Source of the DNA: Candidatus Altimarinota bacterium
GTDB taxonomy: Bacteria > Patescibacteriota > Gracilibacteria > BD1-5 > UBA2023
Direction: 5' to 3'
Assembly (NCBI GenBank): GCA_031423995.1
Contig: JANPGO010000007.1
Coordinates: 1 to 50,037 of the forward strand
DNA: 50,037 nucleotides
In this document: positions 11,201 through 44,089 of the stretch, piece after piece
Layout: the number at the start of each line of letters is the position of its first letter
Position numbering within the stretch: position 1 is the first letter of the stretch
Program-made: the position numbers and the translations under genes
Notes under the pieces: generated by a model
What the model was told of the DNA's origin: nothing
What the model saw: only the letters and a program-made list of their open reading frames with translations
Databases searched by the model: none

Positions 11201-12209
11201 GATATCCGAGGAGAACATTATTCGAGGAGGTGAGGACATATCCAGCTCGATGTCAGAAGACACTATTATTCGAGCCCGCTGAACTGAACTTCATAGACTG
11301 TGTTCAGACAGAAGTATTATATGAACTCGCTGTATTTGTCTGTTGACTCGAGAATCAGACTGCGGTATTATAATTTCCATTGATAAGATAGGTCATCACT
11401 CCTCATCCGAGAGAAGTATTATAACTTCCTGTGGTGACACAACAGAGACCATTATGACCGACAGCAGTATTCGCATTTCCTGTCGTGATAGAGTCAAGAG
11501 TAAATGCTCAAAGTGCCGTATTAAACGCTACAGCGCTACTTCATCTCCCGACTCGCATATCTCCGATGAGGAGATCTCCGCCAGTAAAAGCAATAACTTG
11601 TCCACTTGCATTCATCGTGGAGAGGATTCGCATTTTTTCTGTATTATTCGTCTTCAGTACGAGATCCTGGGCATTGATCGATCCGAGGAAGTCATTTGTA
11701 CCTATAGTATTTCCCGAGAGTGACCAGTAGGTTCCTGAGAGGGTTGCGCTCGTCGTCTGCCAACTCGCGAGTCCTCCTGCATCGGAGACGAGGAATTTCC
11801 CGAGTCCTGGAGTACCTCAGGTGATCATGATCTGACCATTCACCTGGAGTTTCCCTGAACTTGCAGATGGCGTCATACCGATTCCGATATTTCATCCTGC
11901 ATTGTAGAGGTTAGCACTCCCTGTCCAGGTTGTCCCATTGTGGTAGATTGTATATCCAAGCGCACCCGTCATATTGAGTCATGTTGCGGATGGAGTGATA
12001 CAGATCGGCACTCATGTGGAGGTGAATCCTCGGATCACATCACCATAGATAGGACATCCAGGGAAGATATTATCGAAATAGGTTCGATAGGTTCCCCCGA
12101 CGATCTCTCAGGCTGGTGCACCAGTTGGGTAGGTGAGTGCCGATGCGAACGAGATGAGCGAGACAGAGAGTATGAGGGAGAGAGCAAGTGCCAAGAAGCG
12201 GTGACGCAT
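2220..12209 (-). CDS. Giant secreted fibre/adhesin-like repeat protein, 3329 aa
   Basis: ATG at 12207-12209 opens MRHRFLALALSLILSVSLISFASA, a signal-peptide-like N-terminus. I walked the frame codon by codon. About 85 in-frame TGA codons, no TAA or TAG until TAG at 2220-2222. All track ORFs that carry the repeat motifs are in this frame: 2220, 2898, 3264, 4044, 4485, 4821, 5526, 6522, 6951, 7677 and 9981. Content: 17-aa repeats of the form NTANGxxALxSNTTGxx, and about nine neck/knob motifs NQLNIGNWIYGSGGNIGIG..P.QKLTVSGGTIQIIDGTQG.GKFLVSDA.G.ASWQ. Confidence 0.85.
5736..6160 (-). repeat. Tandem 51-bp (17-aa) coding repeat array inside the giant gene, about 8 copies
   Basis: ggtgttggagtagag recurs every 51 nt. 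The array encodes ...SNTTGxxNTANGxxALY... units. It is the most regular part of a repeat pattern that runs through the whole gene. Confidence 0.8.
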
Positions 12210-12226
12210 AGGAGTGAAGTGAGGAA

Positions 12227-13573
12227 TTACTGAATGACAGAATCGAGACCAGGAGGAGGATCAGCAGAGACAGCGCTATTGAAGTCTATTACCATAGACG
12301 ACTTCTCGAACCTGACATCCGTGAATGGAACGGATTTCTGCGTTGGATCGGTATAGTCATAGGTACGGAAATAGTTGAGATCATACACCTGTGAGAGGAG
12401 GGTCGTACAGTTCGAGATGACAACGGGACAGACAGATGGTGTCTGGAGGGCACCCCCGATCGTATTTTTTGAAATAATTCATCACTTGATATATATCTGT
12501 TGGGCTGGGATATTCCATGCTCCAGAGGCAATATACGATGTGATCGGATCTGTTGTCACCGTTTTTTCTCAGGAATAGAGCGATCCCTCAGCATAGATAA
12601 ACGCATAGATTTGATTCACATTCTTCGTGATGATGATATTTCCTCCATTTCCATTCGCATCCTTCAGTGCAATGATCGCTCGCGGATGCGTATCAGTCGG
12701 ATCACCGATGAGACTCTGGTTCAAGATGATATCTCGACCCTCGATGATGATCGAACGCTTCCCTGTCGGCCAGATCCATCCGAATGAGGTATCATAGTCA
12801 AAGGATTGTCCTTTCTGGTAGATGAAGTTTGTACCATTCCCTGATATGAGGTTTGCTGTTGGGATATTTCTCGAGAGCAGTGCGATATTCTTGCGAATCG
12901 TATTGAGGATTTCTGATTGTGAGACATTGCTGAAGACATATCAGACATTCTGGTTGGTCATGTTATAGATACGGCTTCCCGCGATATTTCCGATGACTGC
13001 GATCTTTCCGATAAAGTTGACACTGACCCCGTCGAAAGTGATACCTGTCTGATCAAGTGCTCCCGAGTCAACAGGAGAAGCAGCATAGGCATAGAAAGGG
13101 ATATAGCCAAGTGCACTACTGTGACCAAACCCCTCAAGTACTCATCGTGCTGGATTGTAGTAGACACCCGATCCTCCATCGATGAATGATCCTGAGAGTG
13201 CTATCCATCCACCATTCTGTGACCAGGCAAACCCTGTTGCTGGACAGACGATACTCGTATCTCGGAAGACTGTATCAGGACAGACGATACGAGCCCTCTC
13301 GACACTTCATTCCTGATGATCCAGCCTGACCCAACCGATCTTGCTCACCCAGAAGACTCCTGTGAGGTACCCATCAGTATCGATCATAGCAGCCGAACCA
13401 CTATAGGATGTGCCGATGTCGAATGTTACCTTTCCAGGATGACCTGCAATCCATATATCATCAGGGGTGAATGAGCCTTTAATACGAAAATACTGTCCTG
13501 CACTCATCACGAAGAAGAATGAAAGACTGGATACTAGAAAAATGATGATCGCAAATAGGACTTTACGACTCAT
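12227..13573 (-). CDS. Secreted or membrane-anchored protein with G(F/Y)AWS..GW-type repeats, 448 aa
   Basis: ATG 13571-13573 opens MSRKVLFAIIIFLVSSLSFFFVMSA, a signal or anchor sequence. I walked the frame by hand: 7 in-frame TGA codons, then TAA at 12227-12229. Motifs GVFWVSKIGWVRL and GFAWSQNGGWIAL. C-terminal part contains ...IIIEGRDIILNQSL..IIALKDANGNGGNIIITKNV..IYIKGGIISKNTIGGA. The stop lies 17 nt upstream of the giant-gene start. Confidence 0.75.
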
Positions 13574-26237: not shown

Positions 26238-27212
26238 ATGACTCTTTCCACTGTTCTCATTTTTGTTACGATTATTTTTATACTTGGTACACTCTTTTGA
26301 AGTTTCTCAACTGTGCTTATAGAACGCTGGAAATATGGAAAATCAGGTATTGTGGCAGGAAGAAGCGAGTGTCCACTCTGTCACCATACACTCTCTGCAT
26401 GAGAATTGATACCTCTCTTTTCTTATATATTTCAATGAGGAAAATGTCGAGGATGCAAGAAGCATATATCATTCTGGTACCCTCTTACAGAGGTATTTTT
26501 CTGAATAATATTTCTTGTAATGTCATACATAAGTATATCGATGCACAATGAACTTATAAGCATAGCTACTCTTATCCTTCTCATACTCTGATTCATTACA
26601 GGAGTCTATATGCTCTATGATATTCGCTATACTGAAATTCCTGATCAGATACTTGTGCCTTGAATAGTATGATATAGTATACTTATCATACTATGATATT
26701 ATCTCTCCCCAGTTCGTTCCTATTTATTTTGAATTAATACGTATCAGAGTTATTCGGCTTTCATGATCGACCATTTTCGATGAGCAGTTCTCATATATTG
26801 ATTTTTCTATCTGCAGATTCTCATTCCAGGATGATGGCATCTCTTGAGGAAATGAAACATTCGAGCCTTTATAGAACTTCTTCTTTCATTTTTTGTGTTC
26901 CCATTTGAACTCATTCTTTCAATGTTTTTTAAAAAGAAGGATACTCCCTGAGAGTCTGGGGAAGACATTCCAGCATGGATAGGTTGAGGTGATTTGCGTG
27001 TAGCGCTCTTTATTGGACTCACCCTCTGAACTATTCATACACTGAGCACCTTATTTTTCGCCTATATAACAGGATCGATAGTATGAGTCGCTCTTATAAT
27101 TCAAAAAAGGAAATGATGAAATTCTCACATTGCATTCGGTCCATTTCTCTGAATAGGATGGATGATCTCTATGCTCTTATATATCAGTATTCTCAACTTT
27201 ATTTCCCTATAG
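26238..27212 (+). CDS. pilD: Prepilin (type IV leader) peptidase, A24 family
   Basis: Zinc-ribbon-like CPLCHHTL..GKCRGCKK in the N-terminal part, then WYPLTE. Two aspartate motifs: YDIRYTEIPD and G-TGA-GDLRVALFIGL. FGPFL near the C-terminus. About 8 hydrophobic segments. Frame walked by hand (22 TGA codons) to TAG 27210-27212. Confidence 0.85.
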
Positions 27213-27380
27213 ATTCTGTTTAGTAGAATATTGTTTAATAACACTATTCTACAATAACGTCAATTGTTTTTTCCTTTCAGGATCAGTTTTTTCTCGACAG
27301 ATAGAAAAAGAATTATATAATCAGCATCAAATCTTCCTTCGTAGGAGCGAATTTTTTCTATACATAATCTCGAAATACAC

Positions 27381-27905
27381 ATGGACGAACAAAAAATCAA
27401 GGCTCTTAGAGACCTTATCCATTCAGCACAAAACTCAATTCACTCAGCAAAAAAGATTCTCAACGCACTTCTTGGAGATGATGAAGACGATCTTTGACTC
27501 GATACTTCTGGACTCATGAACTATACTTCATGAGATGATCGCGTGGTAGAATGAGTATTCACGGGTGAATCCATGCTTGGATCTGATGGGAATATGTATC
27601 CAGTACCTCAGAACTACGCGTCAAAATCGCTTCTCGTCCAATGAAGCAAGCTTAAAGCGCTGATTCATCCGAATGGAAAAATCGTCTATAAAATTATTTG
27701 AGAGATTCCCTTTGAAACACTGGTGGGAATTATTACAAAAAATGGGGAGAAATATCAAATCGTTACAGATGCAAAAGCCTATAGTGTCCTACTTGCCGCA
27801 ATCACATTCCATCACTGTTCCGTTGGGGATACAGTGAGTATTCGAATTCCCGAAGGAAAAGATGCAACTTATGCTGTTATAGAGACAGTTATACCGAAAA
27901 AATAG
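27381..27905 (+). CDS. Conserved hypothetical protein (174 aa)
   Basis: Frame walked from ATG 27381 to TAG. Contains EGVFTGESMLGSDGNMYPVPQNYASKSLLVQG..LKALIHPNG. From memory this looks like an uncharacterised CPR protein family. Confidence 0.7.
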
Positions 27906-27937
27906 TCCAGATTTTATTCTCAACTTATCAATAGCCT

Positions 27938-29338
27938 ATGCGTTCCACCACTCATACTCGGAGTAGTAGAAGTGAATCTCCATTTTCATGGAATTGGCTC
28001 ATTGTTGTATGAATTATTGCTGGTATTTTCGGTCTAAATTGGCTTTTTTGATGATCATCATGAGGAAGTGTTGACAAGAGCAACTGACTTCTCGTTATCC
28101 CTGGATCCGGAAGTGAAGTCTATATCAAGCAGGCTCACGGTTCATCAAAACAAATTGAGTGAGAAGAGTCACTCTATACTACTGATGAATCCCTTTCGAT
28201 TATAAATGGCTTTGCTGAAATTCGTTCATCATTTTTGAACGGATTTCTCGATAAGTCATCTGAGCTTACCTACCTAGAACACCGAAATGACGGCGAAAAA
28301 ATTGATTTTATTCGAGGGAGGCTCTGGATTGAATCACATGGAAATACTTCCATTCAGATGAAAAACCTCGAAGCAACAGCCAAAAATGGCGACGTTATTA
28401 TGGTGGAACAACCAAATCAGATATTCAGTACACTCTATGTATTGAAGGGCAATATTTCTATTACAGCTGGTGGTGGAAATAGTTATACGCTGACTCCTGG
28501 TCGAAAAATTATGATATCAAAATCAGATCTTGCGAACCCTGGAACAACCCTTGATATGCTCAGTGGCCCAATAGATGATACTTTGAAGCAGAATCCACTT
28601 TTTATTCTTAGAAATGGTGGGACACTCCTTTCCGTTTGAACAGGCACTATGAGCCTCACTGGAAGAGTACTCAGTAGTACAGGTTCACTTTCTGGAAGCA
28701 TGATTCAAAATACATGAGGCAAATTTATAGAAATTACATCCCCTCTGGATGAATCCATTATAGCAACACAGACGCTTGAGGTTGTAGGGAAAATACTCTC
28801 AAAGGAAGTGAAACGAGTCACACTCAACGATATTGATGCAATCGTGAGTCCAGTTGACGCATCATTCTCACTCAGAGGAATGACACTCAATGGAGAGACA
28901 TTGAATCTTGTTTATAAGGCATATTCGAAAGATGCTACTCTCCTCGAAAAATGAGTTCTCACTCTCTATCCGAAAAATCATCAAACCTGAGCAGATAAGC
29001 TCACTCCAACGAATTTCCCGGTAAATGATAAAGATTATAAAATCACAAGTCCTCTCGAGAACCCTTATAGTACCACAGATGCAAATACTACTGTTCGCGG
29101 TATTGTTCCCAAGAATACTATACAGTATATCACGGTAAATAATTTCCGACTTAAGAAATTCATCCCGAATTCAACATCATGGTATTATTTTGCAAATATC
29201 AGTAATGACACACTCAAAGAAGGTATCAATCTCTACGAGATCGATTTCTATGGTCAAAATGATACTCTCCTCTATAAAAAACTCTTTACTATCGTGAAAG
29301 AGAAGAAATCTACAATATCTGGTGAGAATCCATTATAG
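27938..29338 (+). CDS. Membrane-anchored protein with a FecR-like beta-sandwich region (466 aa)
   Basis: ATG 27938. TM anchor WNWLIVVGIIAGIFGLNWLF. A segment with FecR-like alternation: FIRGRLWIESHG..VIMVEQPN..YVLKGNISITAGGG..LTPGRKIMIS. Frame walked to TAG 29336-29338. Confidence 0.65.
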
Positions 29339-29395
29339 AAATTACACAACCACCCTCGCTCTTATACTCTCTCAGCAAAAGAAGATACTTTCCCT

Positions 29396-30043
29396 ATGAA
29401 GAAAATTTGATTCATGCAATTCATCCGTTCCATTACAGGTTCAACCATGATTGAGCTTATGGCAGTACTTGCCATCATGGGTATGGGAATAGCATGACTT
29501 CTTGAAACGATATGATCTGGTATTTATTTTGCGAAGGATACAGAAAACAATATTAAAGCAATTAATCTTGCTCGTGAATGAATAGAGTGAGTTATCAATA
29601 TCCGAGATACCAATTGGCTACGATTCTCGGGTGATAGAGTGAACTGTTGGCGAACCAAGGATTATAATGGATGATGCATCAACGATAGTTCCTTTGTTTG
29701 ACTCATTGCCTCTGGATCATATACAATTTTTACTCGAAATGGGGCCTGGGTTCTCTCTGGAGCAACACAGATTGATCCGACTGCTAACTGGAATGGATAT
29801 GCAAATATGTACATGGTAGGTCTTGACAGTGGAGGATTTTTTACTCAGACAGGGGTAACCACAACACAATGATGTAGTAATCAAACACAGACTGGATGCT
29901 TAACTGTTTTCGCTCGTGAGATTTCTTTGACCGTAATCGGAACTGGTACAATGAACGTCAAAAGCATCATTCGATGGCAAGAGCGACGTCCGATGAGTGT
30001 GATTCTTGATACGACACTCACGAATTGGAAATCTAATTTCTAA
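29396..30043 (+). CDS. Prepilin-type N-terminal cleavage/methylation protein (minor-pilin/pseudopilin-like)
   Basis: Class III signal: ...RSITG|STMIELMAVLAIMGMGIAG, with Glu at +5 and a hydrophobic helix. 215 aa. TAA at 30041-30043. An alternative start is ATG 29414. Confidence 0.75.
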
Positions 30044-30077
30044 TATTTGCCAAGAAGAAACATATATGATATGCTTG

Positions 30078-30108
30078 ATCGGAATTACAAATATAAATTC
30101 CGATTTTT
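30078..30108 (+). terminator. AT-rich hairpin plus T-run directly before the next start codon (weak terminator or attenuator)
   Basis: atcggaatt (30078-30086) pairs with aattccgat (30096-30104). A tttt run follows, then ATG 30109. Confidence 0.4.
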
Positions 30109-31572
30109 ATGTCTTTCTCTCTTGGATGGCTCAGTCGTGGCATCATGTTCATATGGTTTTGTAACTGTATCATAGGAGCAGGCATAGCTGTACATGAAGT
30201 ATGGATTCCTTATATGAATGCTGGAAACGACTCATATACAAAGATTCAAAGTGATCCTTTTGATGGAACTGTCATGCCTATTGCGTATATCCCAGATTGG
30301 ACAAAATCAGAAAACCAAGATAAATCAAAGCGTTTTGAAGATATCAATATTAGCGAGTATATTCCTATACCCCAATATGATCCGATTGCACTCCTCGATA
30401 CCAAGAACTCAACAAAAGCTTCGACTATTCTTCACTATACGTATTTCACACCATATATGTGAAGCTATCGATTGAATTATAAGGAATTCGATGGAAGTCA
30501 TAATGCAATAGATATCAGAGTTCCCATTGGTACACCGGTACTCTCGATTGCAAATGGAATAGTGGTAAAAACTATTGAGGCTGATGGCTCTGGAGATAGA
30601 TTTATCGTCATTCGACATGATGGAGTCAATTTAGAAGGAAAAGTTCAGTCATTGTATTCATGCTACCTTCACCTTTCTGAGATCCTCATCCAAGAAGGAA
30701 CAAAGGTACGAAAAGGTGATATGATTGGTCGTACTGGCATGAGTGGTATCGCGACCACTCCACACCTTCATATACAGATAGATACAGCTGATGCTCCATT
30801 TCACCCATACTGGCCATTTACTTCTAGTGATTCTCGAGCCGCATGACTCGGGTTCTATGACTCAATCAATGCATGACTCGGAAAAGAAAATGCACTCAAA
30901 TATTCGATCAATCCAATGAGTTTTATAAATATGTATCTGGGTGGAACGACAGTTCCAACATTCTCAACTGCTCCAGTCACACAGTGAACAGAGGTAGTGA
31001 CCGATCAAGGAACTAAAACCATTGCATCCTATGTATCTGAGAATGATCCGTGTACCAAGAAACGGTACAATGATGTGGGAGAGACAAGTACTCTAGGGAA
31101 GATGCTCTACCCACTCGTTGATAAAAAGTGTCTTTTTCAAAAAACTGATCAGAGTTTCTCAAGCAAATGATATATTAGTCAGCGAGAAGCTATTACTAAT
31201 CTTATGAAGTTCTATGGTATAGTTCCTTCGAATGGAACGAGTCACTTTCTTGATATTCCTATCGGTGATGTCTTCCAAGGATATGCTCTTGTAGCCTATC
31301 GTCGTGGTTTGCTTGATGGGAACTATGCATATCCAGAAAAGATTCTCTCAAAATGAGAGTTTATCGAACTCCTCGTGAAAATTGCCCAGCCTGAGAAAAA
31401 TCCTTCACAGATTCGAATATATAACGATGTTGATCCGATGAATCCTCACTACAAGAGTGCTCAAGACTATTGATATATGGTCCGTGCTCGTGGTGGCAAG
31501 CTCTATACAGAGAATATCCTGACTCGCGCTAATATGGTACAGATGCTCGCAGCAATACAACAAAAAAAGTAG
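30109..31572 (+). CDS. Membrane-anchored M23 metallopeptidase with three SLH-like C-terminal repeats
   Basis: N-terminal TM (GIMFIWFCNCIIGAGIAV). M23 motifs HNAIDIRVPIGTPV, IVIRHDG, YCHLSEI, GMSGIATTPHLHIQID. Then three ~55-aa units of the type Y/F-x-D-(V/I)........G..........(S/T)(K/R).E....L. Frame walked to TAG 31570-31572. Confidence 0.8.
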
Positions 31573-31620
31573 ATTTTTCTCGAGAAATCTATACAGTACA
31601 GGCATTCTCAATTTTCTACT

Positions 31621-33024
31621 ATGGCAACAAAAAAGATACTCTTCTTCGTCCTAGCAGGTATACTCGGACTTGGTTTGATTTTTTCACTCTGGAAAATCAC
31701 TCACACTGAGCAATCAACTCAGTCTGGATCAACAGGATCACTCTCAATATGGATTGTCGGTGATACAACGATAGGATATGATACGCTCATTGAAGGATTT
31801 CGAACATATGCTCCAGAGTACAAGAAGACTACAATAGAATTCCGAAAATTTAGTGACTATGCATCCTATCAAAAGATTCTTCTGAGCACCCTTGCAGATG
31901 GAAAAGGTCCAGATATATTCATGGTAGACGCTGGTGCTGATGCCCTGCTTCAGAGTAAAGTAGAACCAATTCCAACATCACTGTTGCATATTTCCGACTT
32001 TGACAAACGATTTGAGGACCTTTTTCTCACTCTTATTGAGAGTTCTGGAACGACAGATGCTACGAATTCTTTTCTTCGTTGAGTTCCACTGTGATATGAA
32101 GCACTCGGAATGTTTTACAATAAATCTCTCCTCACACAGATTCCAAAAACCTGGAATGAAGTCAGTATGCTCTATACCGTGAATCCGACTGCTAATGTTT
32201 TCCCAACAAATATTGGTATGACTTCTCGGTATACACCTTATAGCCTTGATATCCTTTGACTTTTCTTGGTACAATCGTGAATCAGGGAATATAATATGCT
32301 TGATAAAGCTGAGAATACTTATGAGAATTTCTCTTCATTTGCAACGACTCCAATTCCATATACCAATTCAGAAGACTCAGGAATTCAGGATCAGTCTGGT
32401 TCATTCCAGTCTCTCTGGGATATGCAAAATTCGCTTTCTGAGAAAAAACTCACAACGATTGACCTCTTTATGCGATGAAAAATAGCATTTATTGTGGGAT
32501 ACCCGAGCCTCATACATGAGCTCGAGGACGCCAAGAAACGTGCATGAATTGAAGGAATAAAAAGTATCATTCTCACGGAAAAAATTCCTCAGTCATCATT
32601 CTCACAAAATTCTGTGAATCTGGCACGATATTCTTACTTTGGTATATCAAAATCTTCACAAAATGGGTCACTTTGAGTAAAATTCCTCGACTACCTTTTG
32701 ACAGAAGATGCGGAAAGAAGGTTCTTAAGTTCATTCCCAAACTATATTCCTGCACAGAGAAGTTTTTATGAAACTTCGAAATCAGTGTCTCTCTCAACTA
32801 TATTCTCTCGTGCTAAACTAGATAGTTTTATCCCTTGACCGTGAGAAGAACTACAGCTCTTTGATTATGGAAATAAAATCGAATTTGAAAAAATTCTCAC
32901 AGATAATATTGACAGAAATGGAAAAATAGATAAAGATAATATATCAAAAGTAGTAATATCCCAGATCTGATGTGAGGTACACTCTATCTCGGGTGATGGT
33001 CAAAAAGATGGTTGTGTAGAATAA
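31621..33024 (+). CDS. Extracellular solute-binding-protein-like protein (ABC SBP family 1-like), signal-anchored
   Basis: Signal anchor MATKKILFFVLAGILGLGLIF. SLSIWIVGDT, YAPEYKKTTIEFRKFSDYASYQKILLSTLADGKGPDIFMVDAG and GVPLGYEALGMFYNKSLL are typical of sugar-type SBPs. No permease or ATPase genes are adjacent. TAA at 33022-33024. Confidence 0.65.
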
Positions 33025-33092
33025 AGAAGAAAGTTGCATGTTTCTCTATCTTCTGCTACAATAATTTCGTTACTTTCGTTTATTCGTGAATT

Positions 33093-33521
33093 ATGATACT
33101 CTCTCCACGTCAAAAAAATATTATCATCCTCTTCTTTTCAAGTTTTTCACTGATTTCAGAAAAAACATTTGCCCTTTGTAGTGGTTGGTTCAACTTTGGT
33201 GATTGTGAGTTCAAAATACCTGTTGGATGCGAATCTAAAGACTGTCTCAAAGATTGAGTTGGTATTATTGGAAGAGTAATGAAAGGACTGACAAATAAGC
33301 CACTCTCAGAGTATGCCCAGGATGTGGTTCTGTATTTTCTCAGTTTTATCTCAATCATTGCCGTCATCTACATTATCTATGCTGGATTTCAGATACTCAT
33401 CGGTGGTGGCGATGAAGAGAAGATGAAAAAAGCAAAAAATATCATTCTTTATGTCATCGTGGGAATTATCGTCATGTGGCTTGCGTATGCTATAGTTGAG
33501 TGGATTATGAAGCTTCTCTAA
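33093..33521 (+). CDS. Small two-TM protein resembling TrbC/VirB2-type (conjugative or T4SS) pilins
   Basis: 142 aa. N-terminal leader and a Cys-rich stretch. Then two hydrophobic helices (VVLYFLSFISIIAVIYIIYAGFQILIGGG and IILYVIVGIIVMWLAYAIVEWI) separated by DEEKMKKAKN. That layout matches VirB2/TrbC-like pilins. Confidence 0.55.
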
Positions 33522-33578
33522 TTTTGGACTTCCATCATAAACTCCTTTTTTCAAAAAATTTCCGACACCGTATCACTT

Positions 33579-36500
33579 ATGCTCCACAAGAATCGATTCA
33601 TTTCCATCATTACCCTCCTTCTCGTACTTTCTACGAATATTCTCCCTTCGTTCCTTTCTGGATGAGGAACAACTTTTGCATATACTGAGAGTACAAAAAA
33701 TACCTTCATTGAGTATCAGAAACAGCTCACATCCATTAAGGAAGATATAGAGGCTGACTTCCGAAAGAATGGGACAGCAAGTTCGAGTATGCTCCAGAAT
33801 GCGAAAAATATTGTACAAAGTGCCTATGATCGACTTCCTGATACTCTTGATTTCTCAACTGAGAATGCAACGGCAAAAAAATGAACCGATCTCGCTATTG
33901 ATCTTGCATTGAAGAATCCGACATCACAAACCTATGTTAGCAATGCCGTCTCTGCTGTAGAAAAATTCTCAAATGAAGCAAAGATTCTGAAAATTGCCTG
34001 ATCTATCAATGCCAATCCAGTAAGTGGAAATGCCCCACTCTCAATATCATTTCTTGCTGCGAGTGTGAAAGATCCATCAGGAGTAAATCCTGACCCAAAT
34101 AATTATATTTGGTGGGTTCGGGATAATGGTGGCTATAGAAGAGAGATCGGTCGTTGACCAACTCTCAACTATTCTTTCAATAAAGAATGAAGTTATCAGG
34201 TATTTCTCGATGTTATTTCTGGAAGTAGGAATAGTAAATGATACACTGATGTCCTTCCCCTCTCAACCTCACAGGATATCCAGGTGCTCCCACGATTGGG
34301 GGAAATAGTGCTCCTCATCAATGGAGTGAATGTGAGTACACTCTCATCCCTTAAAATTAGTCCGGCACTTGGAAAGATCGGAATTATTTTTGATGCTACC
34401 GCATCACGAGCTATCAGTAATGGTACAATCAAGAAAACGAAGTGGGATTTTGGAAATGGAAATACCATTGAGTACAAATGATCTCCCGTAATTGAAAGAC
34501 AGCTGTATGTCAATCAAGGAGCCTATCAGGCTTCTCTCGAGCTCGAAACGAATGAAGGAACAACATTCAAAAAAGATTTTCAACTCATCGTTATTGATCC
34601 AACTGCTACTATATCAACTGATAAAACGAATGGCTTTGTCGGTGATGACTTCCAAATGAAGGCGATGACTTACTTTACGAATACTCGAAATGTCGAATAT
34701 ACCTGGACGGTTCAATGAGCAAATATGAACGACCTTCATCCTGTGGTACAAATCGGGCAAAACTTTTCATATAAATTTCCAAATGTATGAGACTATATTG
34801 TGACCCTCATATCAAAAAGTCCAAATGGAACAGAAGATAGAGACAGTAAAACAATCACCATTGATTCTCATGAGCCAGTCGTAAATGTAGAGAATCCAAA
34901 AAATATTTCCCCAGAGAAACCAAATATTTTTATCTTCGATGCATCTCGATCAATAGATCCTGATACGAATAGTACAAAAGATTTAACGTATAAATGGACT
35001 ATCGATGGAAATGATGTGGCTCTCGATAATCAGGAGAAAGATGGAGCGATAGGGAAATATATGTTCAATGAGAAATGAACCCATACATTTGCTGTAACTG
35101 TTATCAATAGTCATGGGAAGTCAAAAACCGTTGAAAAATCATTAGACGTAATTTCCACACTTTCAGTCAATGTGAATATTGTCCCCAGAGCCGCTCCTAT
35201 TGGAACACTTGTGAGTTTCCAAGCGATTTCTCCGCGAGCCGCCTTCTATGAATGGAATCCTGGTGACGGAACACCCACTATCAATGGTCAAATGAGTAGT
35301 ATCGACCACGTCTATAAAAAAACGGGGATATATTCAGCAACATTGAATGTAAAAAGTGCTGACGGAACAGAGTCTAATGCAATAGAAAGAAAGGTCTACG
35401 TCACTGATGCGAATAATCCATTTGCACTCATAGAGGTCAGTAACGCATCGAATAGCGTTCTTGAAGATTCGACTGCCTGTGGTGCTTATGGGTGAGCTTT
35501 TCTCGTGAATCGCTCAGAGTGAACAACTATAGATGGGTCAAACTCAGTCAATATTGATGGGTCAAATTGAAGCCTTACCTATACATGGAAGTATCTCGAT
35601 CGAGTCAAGACTGGACCTACTCTTTCTGAGAAATTCACCGAACTCGGATGTTTTCCTGTCGAACTAACAGTGAAGAGTATGCAGAATGGAGCATCTCACA
35701 TAAGTAAACGCTATATACAGATAAAAAATATTCCCCCAAAACTCACTTCTATATCAACAAAGATTGATCAAAATAAAAAAGACAGTCAAAAAATACTGAT
35801 CAATGTGACTGCCGATGGTGCACGCGATGAAGATGGAGTGATCACTTCATATATTTGGTATTATAAAACTGAAAGTGATGCTGAACCCCAGAATATCAAA
35901 ATTACCCAATCTCCAACCACGACATTTATCGTACCAAATATCACTGAGAAATACACGTTCTGAGTGATTCTCGAAGATAATGATGGAGCTAAAGTACGGT
36001 CAGAAGATCTGATCAAGGATCAGTCCCCACTTCTGGTTTCCAACGATAATGGAAATATCAATATGCCTCTTATTGGTCTCTCAGTACCAAAGACACAGGT
36101 TCTTGCAGGAGAAACTGTGAACTTTGTTGTCACAGCAAAGACCATAGTAGGTACAGATATTACGAGTAAAAGTGAATATCAATGGGACTTCGATGGTGAT
36201 GGAAAGATTGATCGAAAAACTACTGAAGCACGAACGAGCTTTGTCTATCCAAATTCATGAACTTTTGCTGCAAAGGTAAAGGTTACCTACAATGGAACGA
36301 GTAATACAAAGTATCAAAATATTGTCGTAAAGAACGAGCTAAAAGCTCAAGCACATGGATATAAAAGTGGTGATACCATCTACCTCATCAATACAAGTAG
36401 TGGTATCTATGATAGTGCATTTTGGCAGGTAGGTGATATACAATCAGACTCTCTTTATGGCATTGCTGTACCGGCATCTGGAATCTTTGGTTCATGAGGA

Positions 36501-38591
36501 TCAAAAAAATCACTCACAGTCAATGCATGAGGAAACGAGACTTCAACGATTGATATCTCACCTGCAAATATTCAAGAGATAGAAAGTACACTTTCTTGAG
36601 GAATATTTGTACAGTCTTTTCCTCAAATATCCAATGCTGAAATCCATGTTCACACTCGAGGAGACAAGATCTTGCTTTGAATGTTCGGGAATACATGAGC
36701 AACACAATATACTATCGATACCAATACGAAAATTGATTCCGACACCAATGGAACTCCAGATGATGATATAGACAATAAGGACTTCCCTTCCTATAAGGAT
36801 GGGTCCATTTACAGCTTCAATACATCAGATATGAAGTTGCATCGACAAACACTTCGTCTCGCTGTGATGAAAAATACCACGGTACTCTGAAGCCAACAAA
36901 TTGATATCATCGCTGACTTTATTTCTGATATTACTCCAGAAACTACGAATCTACTTACAGATTCTGGATCTGAATCATTTTCTCAAAAAGAGAAAGAGAA
37001 TCTCGAGAAATTTCAGGCTAAAATACGGACTATTCAGTCTGATGAAAGAATTATTCTCACTCAAGACTACAATTCTCTTATCGAGAGCTGGGATGATACT
37101 CTCGAGCGAACAAAGAAACTTATCGATATCCAAGAAGAAATCAATGGAAGTGCATGAGTCACAGATACCGACAAAAAAGAACTCTCAGGTATTATCGACA
37201 GTATTCTCGTGGGAGATGCAAATGCAACGGATGAAGTCACTGTAGCAACCCGTGTTATTGAGAGCCTTGTATCGTCGACCAATCCAAACCACAACACTAT
37301 AATAGAGAAGCTTGAATCAATCAAGTCACATCCGAACAATCTCAAGGAAAATAAGACCCTCGGTTCAGAGATACTAGCCCTAATAAAAGATGATACATCC
37401 CTTGAAGATAAATATAAACTTCTCATCCGGAGTCAGCTCCAGATAATCTTGAATGGATGACAAGAAAGTATCTCATCATGACTCGTTGTTTCAGGAGAAC
37501 AACCTAGAGGAACAAGTTGATTTTGGTGATTCATCACTGGAACAGTCAAAGTATTCGGGATTATTATTATTGTTATAATCATCATTATTCTTATTGGATT
37601 TATCCTGTATCGATTTTCACGGAAAAATAACGATATTGGTTTCCAAGACTTTCTCATCGACTCAATATTTCATACAAGAAATTCCAAGTGACCATCTTCT
37701 TCAGGTGATTGAATATTTGCGAAGAAAGAAATATTTGCGAAGGTAGATCCTCTTGCCACAGCAATTCAGGAAAGTATACCAAGTATTGTAATACCAAGTA
37801 GTAGCCCCGTAGAGGATCCAATGACAAAATTTTCCCAAATGTCTGTTCAGGAAGTGACAAAAGATGAAATCCTGGTAAAAACACCAATTCAGGAAGAGGT
37901 TGCAAGTATTCCCGACTGGCTCAAGCCAAAAAATGATGCTCACACAGAAACTCTTCCACCTATTTTTTCTGAAACACCAATTTCTACTGACAATACACTT
38001 CCTACCAATTCGGATGACACTATATTCTCATGAGAAAATAACTTACTCCCATCTGAAACCTTTCCTATACCAGAAGCATCTCTTCCCCCTGAATTCATCG
38101 CCGATACTGAAGCACCTCTTCCTTGAGATATTCACTCCAATAAAGAAGAAGATCCAAATCTTCCAGATTGGCTCAAAGGGATGAGCGCTGATGACGATAT
38201 CATTCCGCTAAATGCTCTCAGTGATACAAATAGTACAGAATGAGTTGTTGACATGAATATCTCTCCTGAAAGTCCTGAGGAGATTCCAGCTACTCCTCGC
38301 ACTCAAGAAGAATTGATTCCTTTCGAATGAACTTCACTGAAAACACCAGAAACGGTAACAAATAGTGAAGCTCTTCCTGATTGGCTCATAGATTCGGTCA
38401 CACCTACAAGTCAACAAGAGACAGTGAAAAATAGTGAAAAATTTTCGAGTGAGAAATCTCAAAAGTGAGAAAAAACTCCAAAAAATAAGAAGCCAAAAAA
38501 AGAAATACAGACTGGAAGCAAAAAAGACCTTTCTCATCAACCACAAGATACAGTATCTCAGAGTACTGATCTTCCAGACTGGCTCAAATAA
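33579..38591 (+). CDS. Giant type-I membrane protein, 1670 aa: signal peptide, ~8 PKD/Ig-like domains, helical region, TM helix, disordered tail with 4 PDWL motifs
   Basis: Frame walked from ATG 33579 to TAA 38589-38591. Track ORFs 34284, 34800, 35172, 35670, 35964, 37209 and 37821 are all in this frame and are joined only by TGA codons. PKD hallmarks: WDFGNG, YTWTV, YKWTIDG, YEWNPGDG, YTWKY, YIWYY, YQWDFDGDG. Asp-rich DSDTNGTPDDDIDNKD. TM helix at 37551-37610. Confidence 0.85.
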
Positions 38592-38596
38592 TTTCT

Positions 38597-38629
38597 CTCC
38601 CAAATCAAAGAATTTGGGAGGTTTTTTTT
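38597..38629 (+). terminator. Rho-independent terminator
   Basis: ctcccaaat (38597-38605) pairs with atttgggag (38612-38620), followed by gtttttttt. Confidence 0.75.
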
Positions 38630-38677
38630 GACGAGAAGGGAGAAACCCTATATACTGAACACAATTAATCTTTTCGT

Positions 38678-41002
38678 ATGGAAGAACTCGATTCAAAAAA
38701 GGAAGAAACTCCACATACTCCATCTCCAGGCTCTCTCATTGAGGAGATTTTGAAAGTGCAAAAATGACAAACTTCCGAGTCATCTAGCGAAGAGATAGGT
38801 GGAAGTCAGGAATCCTCATCTCCGCAAACGAACCCTCCACCAGAAATAAAGAAACCTCGTGAACCAATTTCACCGGGAATGTTCCTAAAGTTTATTGGGA
38901 CAATACTCTTTATTTCAATCATATTCTTCGGAAGTTTTCTTACCTATATTGTCTTCAATCCGGACCAAGCTACCTTCTTTATCAATATCTTTGGAATTAA
39001 TCCGAGTGATATTGCGAGCCTTCTGAAGAAGCTCATCAATGGAAGTTTCTGAATTGTTATCTTCATTCTCTCAATCCTCTGGTTTGTATCACTCTTTCGA
39101 GCTATCTGGACAAAGAAAGATCTCAAGAGAAAAAAACTCCTTGCATGGCTCACGGCAGGTCTTATTGGGATTATTCTCTTTTCCATCCTCGCTTTTTGGG
39201 CATACCTCTTCTCACGGATTGATCTTATTCCATTCGATAATCTGAAGGGATCAATTCTTGTCTACGACAATGATCTCTACACTCATGCGGAAACAAAAGA
39301 GTATGCACTGCTCGGTGAGGGATCCAACATATTCTGACCTATCACCCTCATGTTCAATCTCAAATGGAATGCCTCTATGATTGAGAAAACACAATGAGTG
39401 ATGATCAAAAGCTTCAGGATCGATACTGATGGAGGAGCCTGCAATGATGGTACATCTGTCGTCATGTGAAGCAATGTTCTTGATGAGAAGAGTATCGTTT
39501 GTACATTTGATGCCGTCAAGACATACAATATCAATGGTGAATATACCGTCGTCACACGAACTGGGGAGGAACAGAAACTTCCGATGAATATCAGTCCCGT
39601 CGAGATACGATGACTTGTAAAAATCACTCGATCAAAAAATATTCAAGGAAATCATATCATGTCACTGGATGCTGGTAGCCTCAAACGGCTGGGGAATCCA
39701 CGTTGGATATTTCTCCAATCAAATAAAGTCGAAGAAAAATCAAGTATCACACAAACTATCTCCAATATCCCTCAATACGTCTGCCTCAGACTCCTTACAG
39801 ATAACTGTGACCGAGAGTTTATTCTTGAAGATAAAGATATCAGGGAAGTACAGTGATCAATTACGAGTAACCAGGATACCATTGATCCCCTACTCTTTCA
39901 TCTCTGACTCTCAGGATCGAGTATAGATCCGAATCAGATTACCAATATCGAATGGCTCCTTATTGATCACCAGTGATCTGAAGCGGTCATCTGTACAAAA
40001 TGATGAGATACTTGTGATTTTCGATTTGGCTCATATGGCATTGCCAATATTCAGGCACGGATCGAGATGGCAAACCATGATAAATATACCCTCCAAACTG
40101 AGATCAGTGTTCGTGAACCACTTCAGCTCTCGAGAAATATGCGAATACTCGATGAGAATTGAGTCCTCCTCAATACCGTTGATACATATAAAAGTGATCT
40201 GAAAGCTTTTGTGATAGAAAATACGCTCACACCTCCTGCCAATCTCACCCTCGATGCTCGAGATGTAAGATCAAACAATGAAGGATATGTACTTGAGTCA
40301 GTTGTTTGGAAAATAGTGAATATCAAAAAAACGGAAGAAAAGCGATGAGATAAAATTTCTATAAGTCTGTTGGAGCCACTCCGTTATACTATTACAGGAA
40401 TGTATACATTCAAACGAACGAGTGGGAATGAGAGAGAAACAGCAATGGATAGTGTGATCATAGATATTGAGAGAAAAAGTCTTATGCCACGTCTCAAAGT
40501 GACATCAAGTTCGGATTATGTGCCCTCAATGATTACCGTTGATGCATCAGAATCAGAATCAGATAAATGAGAGATTAAGAAATTTATTTTTGACTTCTGA
40601 GATGGAAAGATGCCAGCTGAATGAGATTCGATTCAACAATATGAATATGTCACTCCGGGTCAGAAGATTATCAAGCTCACGATCATTGCTGAAAATGGTG
40701 ATCGGGCAGAGATGAAGAAAATTATTGTTCTCAAGGATGAAGCCAAAAAAATAAACTTTTCCCCAAGTATGACACCAGGGATTGCAAATACGGTAATCGA
40801 CTTCGAAGCACAATGAACGAATGGACAGATAGAAGACTATATTTGGAACTTCTGAGATGATACGCCACTCTTGCATTGATACAATGCAATCCATACATAT
40901 ACGAAGGAATGAACATACCTTATCGAACTAACAATCATCTATAGTGATGGAACCCGTCGATCCGACAAGAAAAAATATGAAGTAAGTAGTGCTCCTCAGT
41001 AG
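38678..41002 (+). CDS. Polytopic membrane protein (3 TM) with a large beta-rich ectodomain ending in two PKD-like domains, 774 aa
   Basis: ATG 38678. TM segments FLKFIGTILFISIIFFGSFLTYIVF, IVIFILSILWFVSLF and LLAWLTAGLIGIILFSILAFWAYLF. PKD-like FIFDFGDGKMPAEG..YEYVTPGQKIIKLTI and YIWNFGDDTPLLHGYNAIHTYTKEGTYLIELTI. Track ORFs 39659 and 40370 are in frame. TAG at 41000-41002. Confidence 0.75.
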
Positions 41003-42630: not shown

Positions 42631-43340
42631 GCATGAACAAATGTACCGATAATATCTTCGGAGCATATCTGATCGATATCTTCGATATGACAGACATAGA
42701 TGGGCATCCCTTCATCATGGGCAAGCGCGATCGCCGCTTGATCCATGACTCGGATATCGCGTTGGATGACTTCATGAAGATGGAGGGTATCATGCCTCAC
42801 TGCATCTGGATATTTCTTTGGATCTTTGTCATAGATCCCATCGACCTTCGTTGCCTTCACAACGACATCACAGGAAAGCTCAAGTGCACGCAGAACCGCA
42901 CACGAATCGGTCGAAAAATACGGATTCCCTGTACCTCAGACACAAATAGCCACTCTTCCCTGCTCAATATGCCTCAGTGCTCGTCTGCGGATGAATTCCT
43001 CAGCTACGCGTTGGGTCGGGATTGCACTCATCACCCGTACATCAACTCATTCATCCTCAATCGCCTCACCGATCGCGAGACCATTGATGATCGTTCCCAT
43101 CATTCCCATATAGTCTCCTGTAACACGGTCAAATCCACCAGCCTCAAGTTCTATTCCACGAAAAATATTTCCTCATCATACAACGATCACGATCTCAAGT
43201 TTCTCGACCTGAACGAGGTGTACGATTTTTTTCGCAAGAAAAGAAAGGAACTTCGGATCGATCCCATATCACTGTTCTCACTGAAGCGCTTCACCAGAAA
43301 GTTTGAGAAGGATTCGTTTCGGGGTATGGTATTTTTTCAT
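42621..43340 (-). CDS. pyrH: UMP kinase
   Basis: [59 protein letters not shown] 43338-43340, TAG 42621-42623. Confidence 0.9.
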
Positions 43341-43349
43341 AAGAAGGGC

Positions 43350-43952
43350 TTAGAAGTGAAATCCTCGAGTAAAGAGAAAGAAAACAAAGGAAAATGCGAG
43401 TACGAGAATAAAAAGGATAGTAAGTCCAAGAATCATGGAATTACGCTTGATAATCTCCTTTTCGAGAGAAGTAACTGTATCTATGAGTCACTTGGTGTCC
43501 TCATCACTTTTGGACTTGGCACTCTCGAGGAGATAGGTCGCTTTCTTGTAGTCCATGAGGGGGATCGAGTTCTGGAGTTCGGTTTCTGTCTTTCCAAGAC
43601 GGTAGGAGAGATCTTGAATAATCTCATCTTTTCTCGATATCACAGCCTGTGCCTCTTCATATATACGAGAAAACTCAGCTATTGCTTGTACGGAATATTC
43701 TTTGGGGACAATATTGTGACTTCGTTCCTCATTCTCAGTACGGTAGTCTTCCTTATCAAGGATTACAATATAGTCATCCTCACGTCGTGCAGGGTCCATG
43801 AGACGAAGTGACTCAATATCTGTATCTTCGAGATACATTTTTTTGCCTATTCTCCGGGTACGAATGCGCCCAGCCTGAATATGACGATCTACCGTTCGAG
43901 TAGAGACTGAGAGGCGACGAGCCGCCTCAACACGATCAATCGCAAAAGACAT
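43350..43952 (-). CDS. Excisionase/MerR-type HTH protein with a C-terminal TM anchor (200 aa)
   Basis: N-terminus AIDRVEAARRLSVSTRTVDRHIQAGRIRTRRIGKKMYL, then a coiled region, then after one TGA the hydrophobic tail MILGLTILFILVLAFSFVFFLF. TAA at 43350-43352, 9 nt upstream of the pyrH start. Confidence 0.7.
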
Positions 43953-44089
43953 ACGTAAAATCTTGAAGCTAAGGTATAGAGGAGGAGTTCTGAAAAAAAC
44001 TTCCCAAAGTTTGACCTATTCTATAAAAAACCTCTAAAAAAACAAATTCCATTTTCTTCAAATAATGAAAGTTGTTTGATATGTTCTTT

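Follow-up and report, generated by a model that had tools for sequence, protein, structure and literature searches.

How is a giant surface protein of an uncultured bacterium connected to the inside of the cell that displays it? The question is raised by gene g19, which lies within a stretch of 50,037 nucleotides (nt) from Candidatus Altimarinota bacterium, a member of the Gracilibacteria (contig JANPGO010000007.1, positions 1 to 50,037); this whole stretch was analyzed and is referred to here as the window. The g19 product is a 1670-residue PKD surface protein composed of an N-terminal signal peptide, PKD domains, a single transmembrane (TM) helix, and a tail of 326 amino acids (aa), in that order. 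The tail carries four copies of a short peptide with the core [IL]PDWL, here called PDWL boxes, the last of which is the extreme C-terminus of the protein. A first-pass annotation, made from the letters of the window alone, described this arrangement and proposed that the repeated peptides are short linear docking motifs. The length of the protein, the TM helix and the extent of the tail are all reproduced by translation with genetic code 25, and the four motifs lie exactly where they were placed, with the final one directly preceding the TAA stop codon. All of the evidence presented here is computational, and it supports the proposal: the tail is very probably a disordered cytoplasmic segment that displays multivalent docking peptides. 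What these peptides dock to is a second question, for which a likeness to the C-terminal peptide of FtsZ provides a tentative lead.

The tail is of low complexity and rich in E, P, S, T and K, as first described, with P, E, S, T, K, Q, D and N making up 65% of its residues and a net charge of -27. The boxes are spaced by 84, 71 and 66 residues, in agreement with the distances given earlier, and each contains one of the four Trp residues of the tail. Two or more [IL]PDWL motifs were seen in none of 200,000 shuffles of the tail that preserve its composition, and in 5,000 shuffles of the same kind no 4-mer whatsoever occurs four times. No further P[DE]W[LIVM] is present in the six frames of the 50-kb window, and a search for [ILVM]P[DE]W[LIM] in about 835,000 residues of six-frame open reading frames (ORFs), from code-25 DNA not selected for the motif, gave zero matches outside of the g19 orthologues. 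The repetition of [IL]PDWL in the g19 tail is not a chance event. Neither is it a DNA repeat or the product of recent duplication, both of which are ruled out: likeness among the four copies extends over only about 20 nt and the differences are synonymous (CCC/CCA/CCT, GAC/GAT, AAG/AAA). Because the copies differ at synonymous positions, the constraint acts on the peptide and not on a DNA repeat. An 18-nt tandem duplication encoding IFAKKE/IFAKV is present elsewhere in the tail; the first-pass annotation recognized it correctly, although about 3 nt from its actual position, and it is not kept in the alignment of orthologues. No match to Pfam or NCBIfam was found anywhere in the tail. A C-terminal sorting signal of the LPXTG sortase or PEP-CTERM/exosortase type was rejected because the order of elements in g19 is reversed, with the TM helix first and more than 250 tail residues before the terminal motif.

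The reading of these peptides depends on how TGA is translated. With the standard bacterial code the window (41.6% G+C) yields short broken ORFs, and long genes emerge when TGA is taken as a sense codon; g19 has 33 in-frame TGA codons. At aligned positions of orthologues, Gly accounts for 54.5% of the residues paired with an in-frame TGA and Trp is outside the top eight, and the code is therefore assigned as code 25, that of Gracilibacteria and Absconditabacteria, and not code 4. Code 4 (TGA as Trp), which this pairing rules out, would add seven spurious Trp residues to the tail. The plus strand is identified as the coding strand of g19 by the synonymous variation at the conserved motif and by the continuous sense ORF. 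We note that a frame free of TAA and TAG (37067–38647 on the minus strand, 527 codons) is located opposite the tail and is probably a by-product of composition.

Tails bearing the motif are found in more than 35 species of Gracilibacteria, with 3–6 motifs in the same order. With the stalk, TM and tail segments of g19 as query, nine relatives with 32–53% identity were identified, and four ordered boxes are present in every complete one; the boxes of these nine have distinct flavors, IPDWLK[VAP]P, IPDW[IL]K and LPDWL[VIMR][DNS]S, followed by a KKPK patch and the terminal [IL]P[DSN]WL[KQ]. Scanning of one genome per species (GTDB) gave 20 Gracilibacteria loci, in which all 17 complete proteins contain 3–6 boxes and end with [IL]P[DES]WLK, and a scan for the terminal heptapeptide followed by a stop codon, the counts from which are lower bounds, added at least 17 or so further species of the g19 family. 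In a non-redundant set of 30 complete tails, every one ends in WLK and in the longer [IL]P[DES]WLK-COOH and has 3–6 motifs (exactly four in 23 tails); these tails are 251–392 aa long with a median net charge of -29.5, 125 of their 137 Trp residues are inside boxes, and position -1 of the terminal box is D in 19, N in five, E in five, and H in one. When 1.84 billion representative proteins were searched exhaustively with a profile, 333 relatives were recovered. In 74 representative tails from this set there are 322 boxes; the Trp is found in all 322, the residue between Pro and Trp (position x) is Asp in 81%, that before the Pro is I, L or V in 90%, and the residue after the core is K in 70%. 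The box consensus is [ILV]-P-[D>S,A,E]-W-L-[K>R,Q], with the last copy forming the free C-terminus.

The linkers between boxes are unalignable and gap-rich, and the invariant columns of the tail coincide only with the P-D-W-L-K boxes and with a juxtamembrane box. Conserved islands of 3–10 residues amid fast-evolving, unalignable sequence are what defines a short linear motif (SLiM), and this is the form that the g19 tail takes. A search of a 5.8-billion-protein database using a profile of the motif only returned four fragments of 56–77 aa with 2–3 boxes each, all ending in DIPDWLK, and these are probably tails truncated by a TGA miscalled as a stop. PDWL tails are under-represented in public protein databases because TGA is often read as a stop. 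Single matches to ...PDWLK-stop in folded enzymes or short ORFs were treated as chance, about 100 being expected by our own estimate.

The conserved elements of the tail are limited to a juxtamembrane GFQDFLID helix, two DP(L/M) mini-motifs, a basic patch, and the 3–6 PDWL boxes. The juxtamembrane box has the family-wide pattern [GSA]FQD[FW][IL]I[DE], reading IGFQDFLID without variation in the subgroup to which the window belongs; its conserved part, IGFQDFLIDSIFH (37635–37673), is invariant in this subgroup, and no PDWL box taken singly is as well conserved. It may serve as a helix on the membrane surface or as a further site of binding. The mini-motifs follow the juxtamembrane box and precede PDWL box 1, and their columns (DPL..SYTP and DP[LM]) are conserved at 70% or more.

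Three lines of evidence place the g19 tail in the cytoplasm and the PKD region outside of the cell. First, the PKD domains follow a signal peptide and precede the only TM helix, which is very hydrophobic. Secondly, the positive-inside rule is followed by all 30 orthologues, with more Lys and Arg in the 15 residues after the TM helix than in the 15 before it (means of 2.63 and 0.33). Thirdly, in 11 other species (loci L006, L007, L009–L011, L014–L018 and L020) the upstream gene g18 and the PKD gene form a single ORF, in which a two-TM domain resembling type IV secretion system (T4SS) pilins lies ahead, and there is no extra hydrophobic segment before the PKD part. Pilins of the VirB2/TraA type have two membrane helices with both ends outside, and a fusion behind such a domain puts the PKD region outside and the tail inside.

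Structure predictions were made on the orthologues P0003 and P0008, with the P0008 segment spanning the TM helix and the complete tail. AlphaFold gives a predicted local distance difference test (pLDDT) score of about 90 for the P0008 TM helix and about 75 for a helix at the juxtamembrane box, and 203 of the 319 residues score below 50. Local peaks (pLDDT 54–66) with short helices occur at residues 133–135, 200–203 and 260–266 and at the C-terminus, and these are the four boxes. The tail is predicted to be intrinsically disordered with helical islands at the boxes, the expected picture for SLiMs that fold on binding. The first-pass annotation had suggested disorder and an internal tail, and had named conservation, topology and frequency as the points on which its docking-motif proposal would turn; a motif kept by all complete orthologues amid unalignable linkers, a tail predicted to lie inside, and a repetition well above chance all support it.

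PDWL boxes are not confined to g19 orthologues. A second, shorter PKD-TM family (L088, P0141, P0142 and P0159; 781–1023 aa) is present in other Candidate Phyla Radiation (CPR) bacteria, and its members have a signal peptide, a DxDxDGDG/PKD ectodomain, one TM helix, a juxtamembrane P.L[TS]F[GE]EI[IL], and a tail with 2–5 boxes of the form xP[DEPSN]WL[KNQ]. In three independent loci the short-family gene is located after a T4SS-pilin gene and a pilin-like+PKD giant that has no tail. In this family the boxes always occur within the pilin-like/PKD module of T4SS-pilin-like gene, giant PKD protein and tail-bearing protein (L088, L207, L209, P0141, P0142 and P0159). The PDWL tail is therefore a portable part of a pilin-like and PKD surface module, carried on different subunits. 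Boxes are also found in very large, acidic, low-complexity proteins of the Chloroflexota/Anaerolineae (L066, L077, L129 and L033), which have tetratricopeptide (TPR) repeats at the N-terminus and a terminal DLPDWLK. These contain dozens of xDW(L/M) boxes, several of the form [ILVM]P[DE]W[LM], and a C-terminal module APDWLNAMVPGLDIDY...RFSFSRxPxWLRR; no TM segment was found in any of the four, and they appear to be uncharacterised.

A close known counterpart of the box is the FtsZ C-terminal peptide, an eight-residue sequence that follows a disordered linker, has Asp, Pro and Phe as its conserved residues, and is a ligand of FtsA, ZipA, SepF, ZapD, MinC, SlmA, EzrA and MapZ, being helical on FtsA and ZapD (PMC9939409). 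The PDWL tail has the position at the end of a disordered linker and the Asp/Pro core (Pro in 100% of boxes, with position -1 mostly D); it does not have Phe at the aromatic position or a Tubulin/FtsZ_C domain, and it is not detected by a profile of FtsZ peptides from its own lineage. When 185,579 species genomes were scanned for [DENK][ILMF]PDWLK followed by a stop codon, the matches listed included two genuine FtsZ proteins with both Tubulin and FtsZ_C domains. These are encoded in metagenome-assembled genomes (MAGs), one of the Peptoniphilaceae (L136, JASBZD010000030.1) and one of the Actinomycetota (L137, DPWC01000176.1), and end with ...NLDIPDWLK and ...DDLDIPDWLK, respectively, with Trp replacing the Phe. 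Since DIPDWLK ends two bona fide FtsZ proteins, the exact heptapeptide serves in nature as an FtsZ C-terminal peptide. FtsZ genes of code-25 organisms were retrieved from a mixed genome collection with the tubulin signature GGGTG[ST]G..., in which the first Gly is encoded by TGA, as is only possible in such organisms; this gave 66 matches (L140–L205), nearly all from Gracilibacteria, Absconditabacteria or SR1, with about 60 FtsZ genes. The FtsZ proteins of Gracilibacteria end with (D/E)DLD[VI]P[AST]FLR[KN]K, on the template of the PDWL box, and those of Absconditabacteria/SR1 end with E-T-P-A-F-[ILM]-R, systematically unlike the D-[VI]-P-A-F-L-R-K-K of the Gracilibacteria. A gene for FtsA (with FtsA and SHS2 domains) is directly upstream of ftsZ in Gracilibacteria; neither ftsZ nor ftsA is present within the fetched tail loci.

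In the mechanism that we propose, the PDWL boxes would be multivalent docking sites, each adopting about one helical turn once bound, and the acidic spacers of about 50–130 residues would act as leashes. Through the boxes the extracellular PKD/pilin-like structure would be held to, positioned by, or in signaling contact with a protein beneath the membrane. The working principle would be that of the FtsZ 'grappling hook', with a disordered linker leading to an acidic-Φ-P-x-aromatic-L-basic C-terminus. A receptor of FtsZ-type peptides, i.e. FtsA, is favored by the match to this template at all positions of known importance, by the occurrence of the identical peptide in FtsZ proteins, and by the placing of the box at the very end of a flexible linker. 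The movement of the module between genomic neighborhoods without a linked cytoplasmic gene, and the DLPDWLK at the ends of the Chloroflexota TPR proteins, likewise suggest a housekeeping receptor that is widely conserved. We tentatively propose, from these peptide comparisons, that the receptor is FtsA or another reader of FtsZ tails, with FtsA as the leading candidate; the first-pass annotation had guessed at a 'cytoskeletal' partner, which fits FtsA as a candidate, this being the canonical receptor of FtsZ tails. By binding membrane-bound FtsA, the surface module would be linked to it and to the division site or new pole, or would compete with FtsZ there. Taken across all of their carriers, the PDWL boxes may be natural mimics of the FtsZ peptide that plug the giant CPR surface modules for host contact and, separately, Chloroflexota TPR proteins into FtsA or another FtsZ-tail receptor, a reading to which we assign a probability of roughly 0.3. 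Such multivalent tails would then bring the attachment apparatus to the division site or new pole, or would modulate anchoring of the Z-ring.

Several observations weigh against a receptor of FtsZ-type peptides. A hidden Markov model of 55 code-25 FtsZ peptides, run against 12,229 ORFs (1.87 M residues), gave top hits from which the PKD tails are absent. The boxes have Trp without exception (322/322) and Asp at x in 81%, and the code-25 FtsZ peptides have Phe in 54 of 55 and A, S, T or P at x, with no crossover; this partition is the pattern that two receptors, or two tuned specificities, would give. Only three pairs of tail and FtsZ from the same genome are available, and they show neither variation nor co-variation. 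In the shorter PKD-TM family the flanks of the boxes are often basic (e.g. GKTPDWLK), T, A or M can occur before the Pro, and in some tails the last box is not at the end. That the boxes closely mimic the FtsZ peptide of their own organism is ruled out, as the profile misses the tails and there is no crossover at the W/F and D/A positions. As judged from the peptides themselves, the PDWL box shares the template of the FtsZ hook without copying the hook of its own organism.

The strict separation of tails from FtsZ of the same clade at the W/F and D/A positions, and the failure of the lineage profile to find the tails, are also in keeping with boxes that dock a dedicated partner outside of the divisome, either a pilus or secretion component (such as an ATPase of the PilB/VirB4 type or an actin-fold protein like PilM) or a CPR protein as yet uncharacterised. 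Their resemblance to the FtsZ peptide would then be convergence on a common amphipathic P-x-aromatic-L helix-cap. We regard this as possible, short of probable. The PDWL motif always accompanies T4SS-pilin-like genes, the Gracilibacteria cluster includes a prepilin peptidase and a type IV pilin-like gene, and a T2SSE ATPase gene is located about 9 kb from the module in L207; the FtsA of Gracilibacteria also matches PilM_2, weakly, indicating that related actin-fold receptors exist. However, no cytoplasmic gene is consistently linked to the module in the loci compared, the ligand of PilM (the N-terminus of PilN, INLLP) is in a different register, and g13, the one soluble protein of the cluster, has a predicted fold resembling no known peptide receptor and is without support as the PDWL receptor.

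Specific recognition might not be needed at all if the boxes are stickers on acidic spacers that promote self-association or clustering, or if their Trp and Leu residues dip into the membrane interface. The presence of 3–6 aromatic boxes on low-complexity spacers, and of dozens of xDWL boxes per protein in the Chloroflexota relatives, would suit stickers, and an interfacial Trp is a common membrane anchor. We nonetheless consider this improbable, since six positions including Pro, Asp and Lys are stricter than a generic sticker or membrane anchor needs, anionic membranes would repel a tail with a net charge of about -30, and the order of the boxes, the distinct flavors of boxes 1–4, and the end exactly after the Lys all point to specific recognition. 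That the tail is outside of the cell, with boxes binding cell wall, S-layer or host-surface components, is hardly credible: the topology is a predicted one and PKD surface proteins often bind external ligands, but the positive-inside rule in 30 of 30 orthologues, the order of signal peptide, PKD and single TM, the two-TM pilin-like fusions that keep the PKD part outside with no further TM, and the occurrence of the terminal heptapeptide on cytoplasmic FtsZ and on TM-less TPR proteins argue against it.

The remainder of g19 and its neighbors are listed in Table 1. PKD families (PF00801/PF18911) were scored against Pfam gathering thresholds, and g19 matches PKD_4 (E=1.5e-39, 134.4 bits, cut-off 27) and PKD (E=7.2e-33, 112.9 bits, cut-off 23.5) in five stretches, the best at aa 530–605. 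The stalk preceding the membrane (LIDIQE...TDEV...SHP...DKYK...) is the best-conserved stretch of the orthologue alignment. A near-identical protein, P0017, is present in a public assembly. The g19 gene belongs to a cluster with the order prepilin peptidase, g13, membrane protein g14, type IV pilin-like g15, M23 peptidase, solute-binding protein, g18, g19, and g20. In the window g18 and g19 share a reading frame, with one TAA (33519–33521) and 57 nt between them, and the split form is found in six other species; in all seven the PKD protein has its own signal peptide, and the mature start of g19, ...AYTES, aligns with the linker ...AQAA|TYSES of the g18-fused orthologues. An independent assembly of a near-identical genome likewise has g18 as a separate gene. 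This natural split/fusion pair ties g18 functionally to the PKD protein.

The gene directly downstream of g19 is always g20. Its disordered cytoplasmic N-terminus (38678–38900) has a conserved S[LF]L.[DE]I[IL].A (GSLIEEILKV in the window), followed by KKPREP and the first TM helix, and this motif is a second candidate docking peptide within the module. The most conserved gene of the cluster is g13 (64–96% identity, with 290 homologues all annotated as 'hypothetical'). It is predicted to have a long N-terminal helix and two OB/S1-like barrels (pLDDT 82.7), with weak fold matches (TM 0.25–0.3) to the S1 domain of RNase R/II, to IF1, and to the coiled-coil and double OB of Mpa; no sequence match was found in Pfam, NCBIfam or PDB. 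Two other regions of the window deserve comment. Gene g02 is a 3329-aa ORF on the minus strand (2220–12209, within a stop-to-stop frame at 2220–12275 with 86 in-frame TGA codons) with a signal peptide-like start, and is probably another giant surface protein. Provisional gene g22 (42633–43958, plus strand) is a long TGA-read-through ORF oddly rich in Cys, His and Arg, and 12 loci have similar ORFs after g20; it may be a genuine gene that evolves fast, or else the shadow of one on the opposite strand.

Table 1. Features of the g19 tail, the g19 protein and its gene cluster, with window coordinates, and related peptides.
Feature	Position	Strand	Basis
Juxtamembrane box YRFSRKNNDIGFQDFLIDSIFH: basic stop-transfer stretch, then invariant GFQDFLID..F.H helix	37608–37673	+	Alignment columns
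18-nt tandem duplication encoding IFAKKE/IFAKV	37712–37747	+	DNA comparison
Two (V/E)DP(L/M) mini-motifs: VDPL (37743–37754), EDPM (37812–37823)	37743–37823	+	Alignment
PDWL box 1, IPDWLK (family flavor IPDWLK[VAP]P)	37908–37925	+	Sequence, alignment
PDWL box 2, LPDWLK (family flavor [IL]PDW[IL]K[GN])	38160–38177	+	Sequence, alignment
PDWL box 3, LPDWLI (family flavor LPDWL[VIMRK][DNS]S)	38373–38390	+	Sequence, alignment
Basic patch KTPKNKKPKK ahead of last box (family: KKPKK / PKPKKPK)	38472–38501	+	Alignment
PDWL box 4, LPDWLK (38571–38588), extreme C-terminus; TAA (38589–38591)	38571–38591	+	Sequence
Tail box peptides with flanks: EEVASIPDWLKPK, EDPNLPDWLKGM, SEALPDWLIDS, QSTDLPDWLK			
Gracilibacteria FtsZ C-terminal peptide: DDLDVPAFLRKKI			
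g19, 1670-aa PKD surface protein	33579–38591 (stop codon included)	+	Code-25 translation (TGA = Gly), Pfam
g19 signal peptide or N-terminal anchor MLHKNRFISIITLLLVLSTNILPSFLSGGGTTFA	33579–33680 (end approximate)	+	Read from sequence
g19 repeated PKD domains, extracellular	34020–36300 (approximate limits)	+	Pfam PKD/PKD_4
g19 helical stalk before membrane, aa ~1130–1300	36966–37478 (approximate limits)	+	Orthologue alignment
g19 single TM helix VFGIIIIVIIIIILIGFILY, aa 1325–1344	37551–37610	+	Hydropathy, positive-inside analysis, AlphaFold helix in P0008
Cluster g12–g20	26238–41002	+	Collinear in most of 20 orthologous loci; Pfam
g13, soluble, 174 aa	27381–27905		
g18, T4SS-pilin/TrbC-VirB2-like small membrane protein	32970–33521	+	PF18895 E=2.2e-10; NF045849 pilin-like conjugal transfer protein
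g20, polytopic membrane protein, C-terminal PKD domains	38678–41002	+	Pfam, collinearity

The Gracilibacteria and related CPR bacteria are episymbionts and predators that have barely been cultured, if at all, and contact with the host is the assumed role of their giant surface proteins. The g19 tail offers a handle on how CPR surface structures connect to the cell interior, as a peptide of 6–7 residues can be synthesised and used as bait for partners. If the partner is FtsA or another FtsZ-tail reader, CPR bacteria would have a link between attachment to the host and their cell division and polarity; the FtsZ hook would have been copied onto other proteins, with a bearing on the competition among ligands of FtsZ-tail receptors, and mimics of this type would form a previously unrecognised class of non-FtsZ proteins with FtsZ-like hooks. 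If the partner is something else, the motif points to a cytoplasmic part so far missing from a surface machine that is widespread in the CPR. In either case the PDWL motif is an annotation marker for tails that are usually fragmented by mistranslation of code-25 genomes.

Among known systems, the giant PKD membrane proteins of Absconditabacteria/Gracilibacteria described in Vampirococcus lugosii, which are thought to mediate host recognition and attachment (PMC8080830), are close to g19 in kind, being likewise large membrane-anchored PKD proteins of predatory or episymbiotic CPR bacteria. The published work on Vampirococcus (PMC8080830) and on groundwater Gracilibacteria treats giant PKD proteins and pili in general terms, with no tail, PDWL motif or link to a pilin gene. 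A full-text literature search for 'PDWL' gave only unrelated abbreviations, and no description of the motif, tail or pilin-like fusion was found in the literature on FtsZ peptide mimics or on Gracilibacteria PKD and pilin proteins. The Chloroflexota TPR proteins share with the g19 tail the terminal heptapeptide, multiple internal boxes, and the acidic low-complexity context; they differ in being cytoplasmic, in their TPR repeats, many degenerate DWL/DWM boxes and own C-terminal module, and in belonging to another phylum.

The C-terminal tip of SSB, an OB-fold ssDNA-binding protein, is a hub-binding peptide on an acidic tail that ends in ...DDDIPF-COOH, and the L088 protein ends similarly with ...DDDDIPDWLK. 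From what is generally known of SSB, the likeness is limited to an acidic disordered tail followed by (I/L)P; IPF-COOH and IPDWLK-COOH are in different registers, there are no internal copies in SSB, and the carrier is different. In E. coli ZipA, a TM helix is followed by a charged, P-rich disordered linker and an FtsZ-peptide-binding domain. Both ZipA and g19 therefore have a membrane anchor and then a long flexible charged linker toward a cytoplasmic interaction of the division type, but ZipA carries the receptor domain and the g19 tail the peptide ligands, and there is no sequence similarity between the two. The FtsZ 'grappling hook' resembles the PDWL tail, with both having a disordered linker and then a C-terminal acidic-[ILV]-P-x-aromatic-L-[KR], with a short helix known for one and predicted for the other. 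The PDWL tail departs from it in its single-pass PKD carrier with no tubulin-fold GTPase, in its 3–6 copies rather than one, in the invariant Trp instead of the conserved Phe, in Asp rather than A/S/T at x, and in ending at the Lys without a basic variable extension. On this comparison of sequences, the PDWL tail appears to place a docking SLiM of the FtsZ-hook type on a new carrier, standing outside of the FtsZ-hook class proper.

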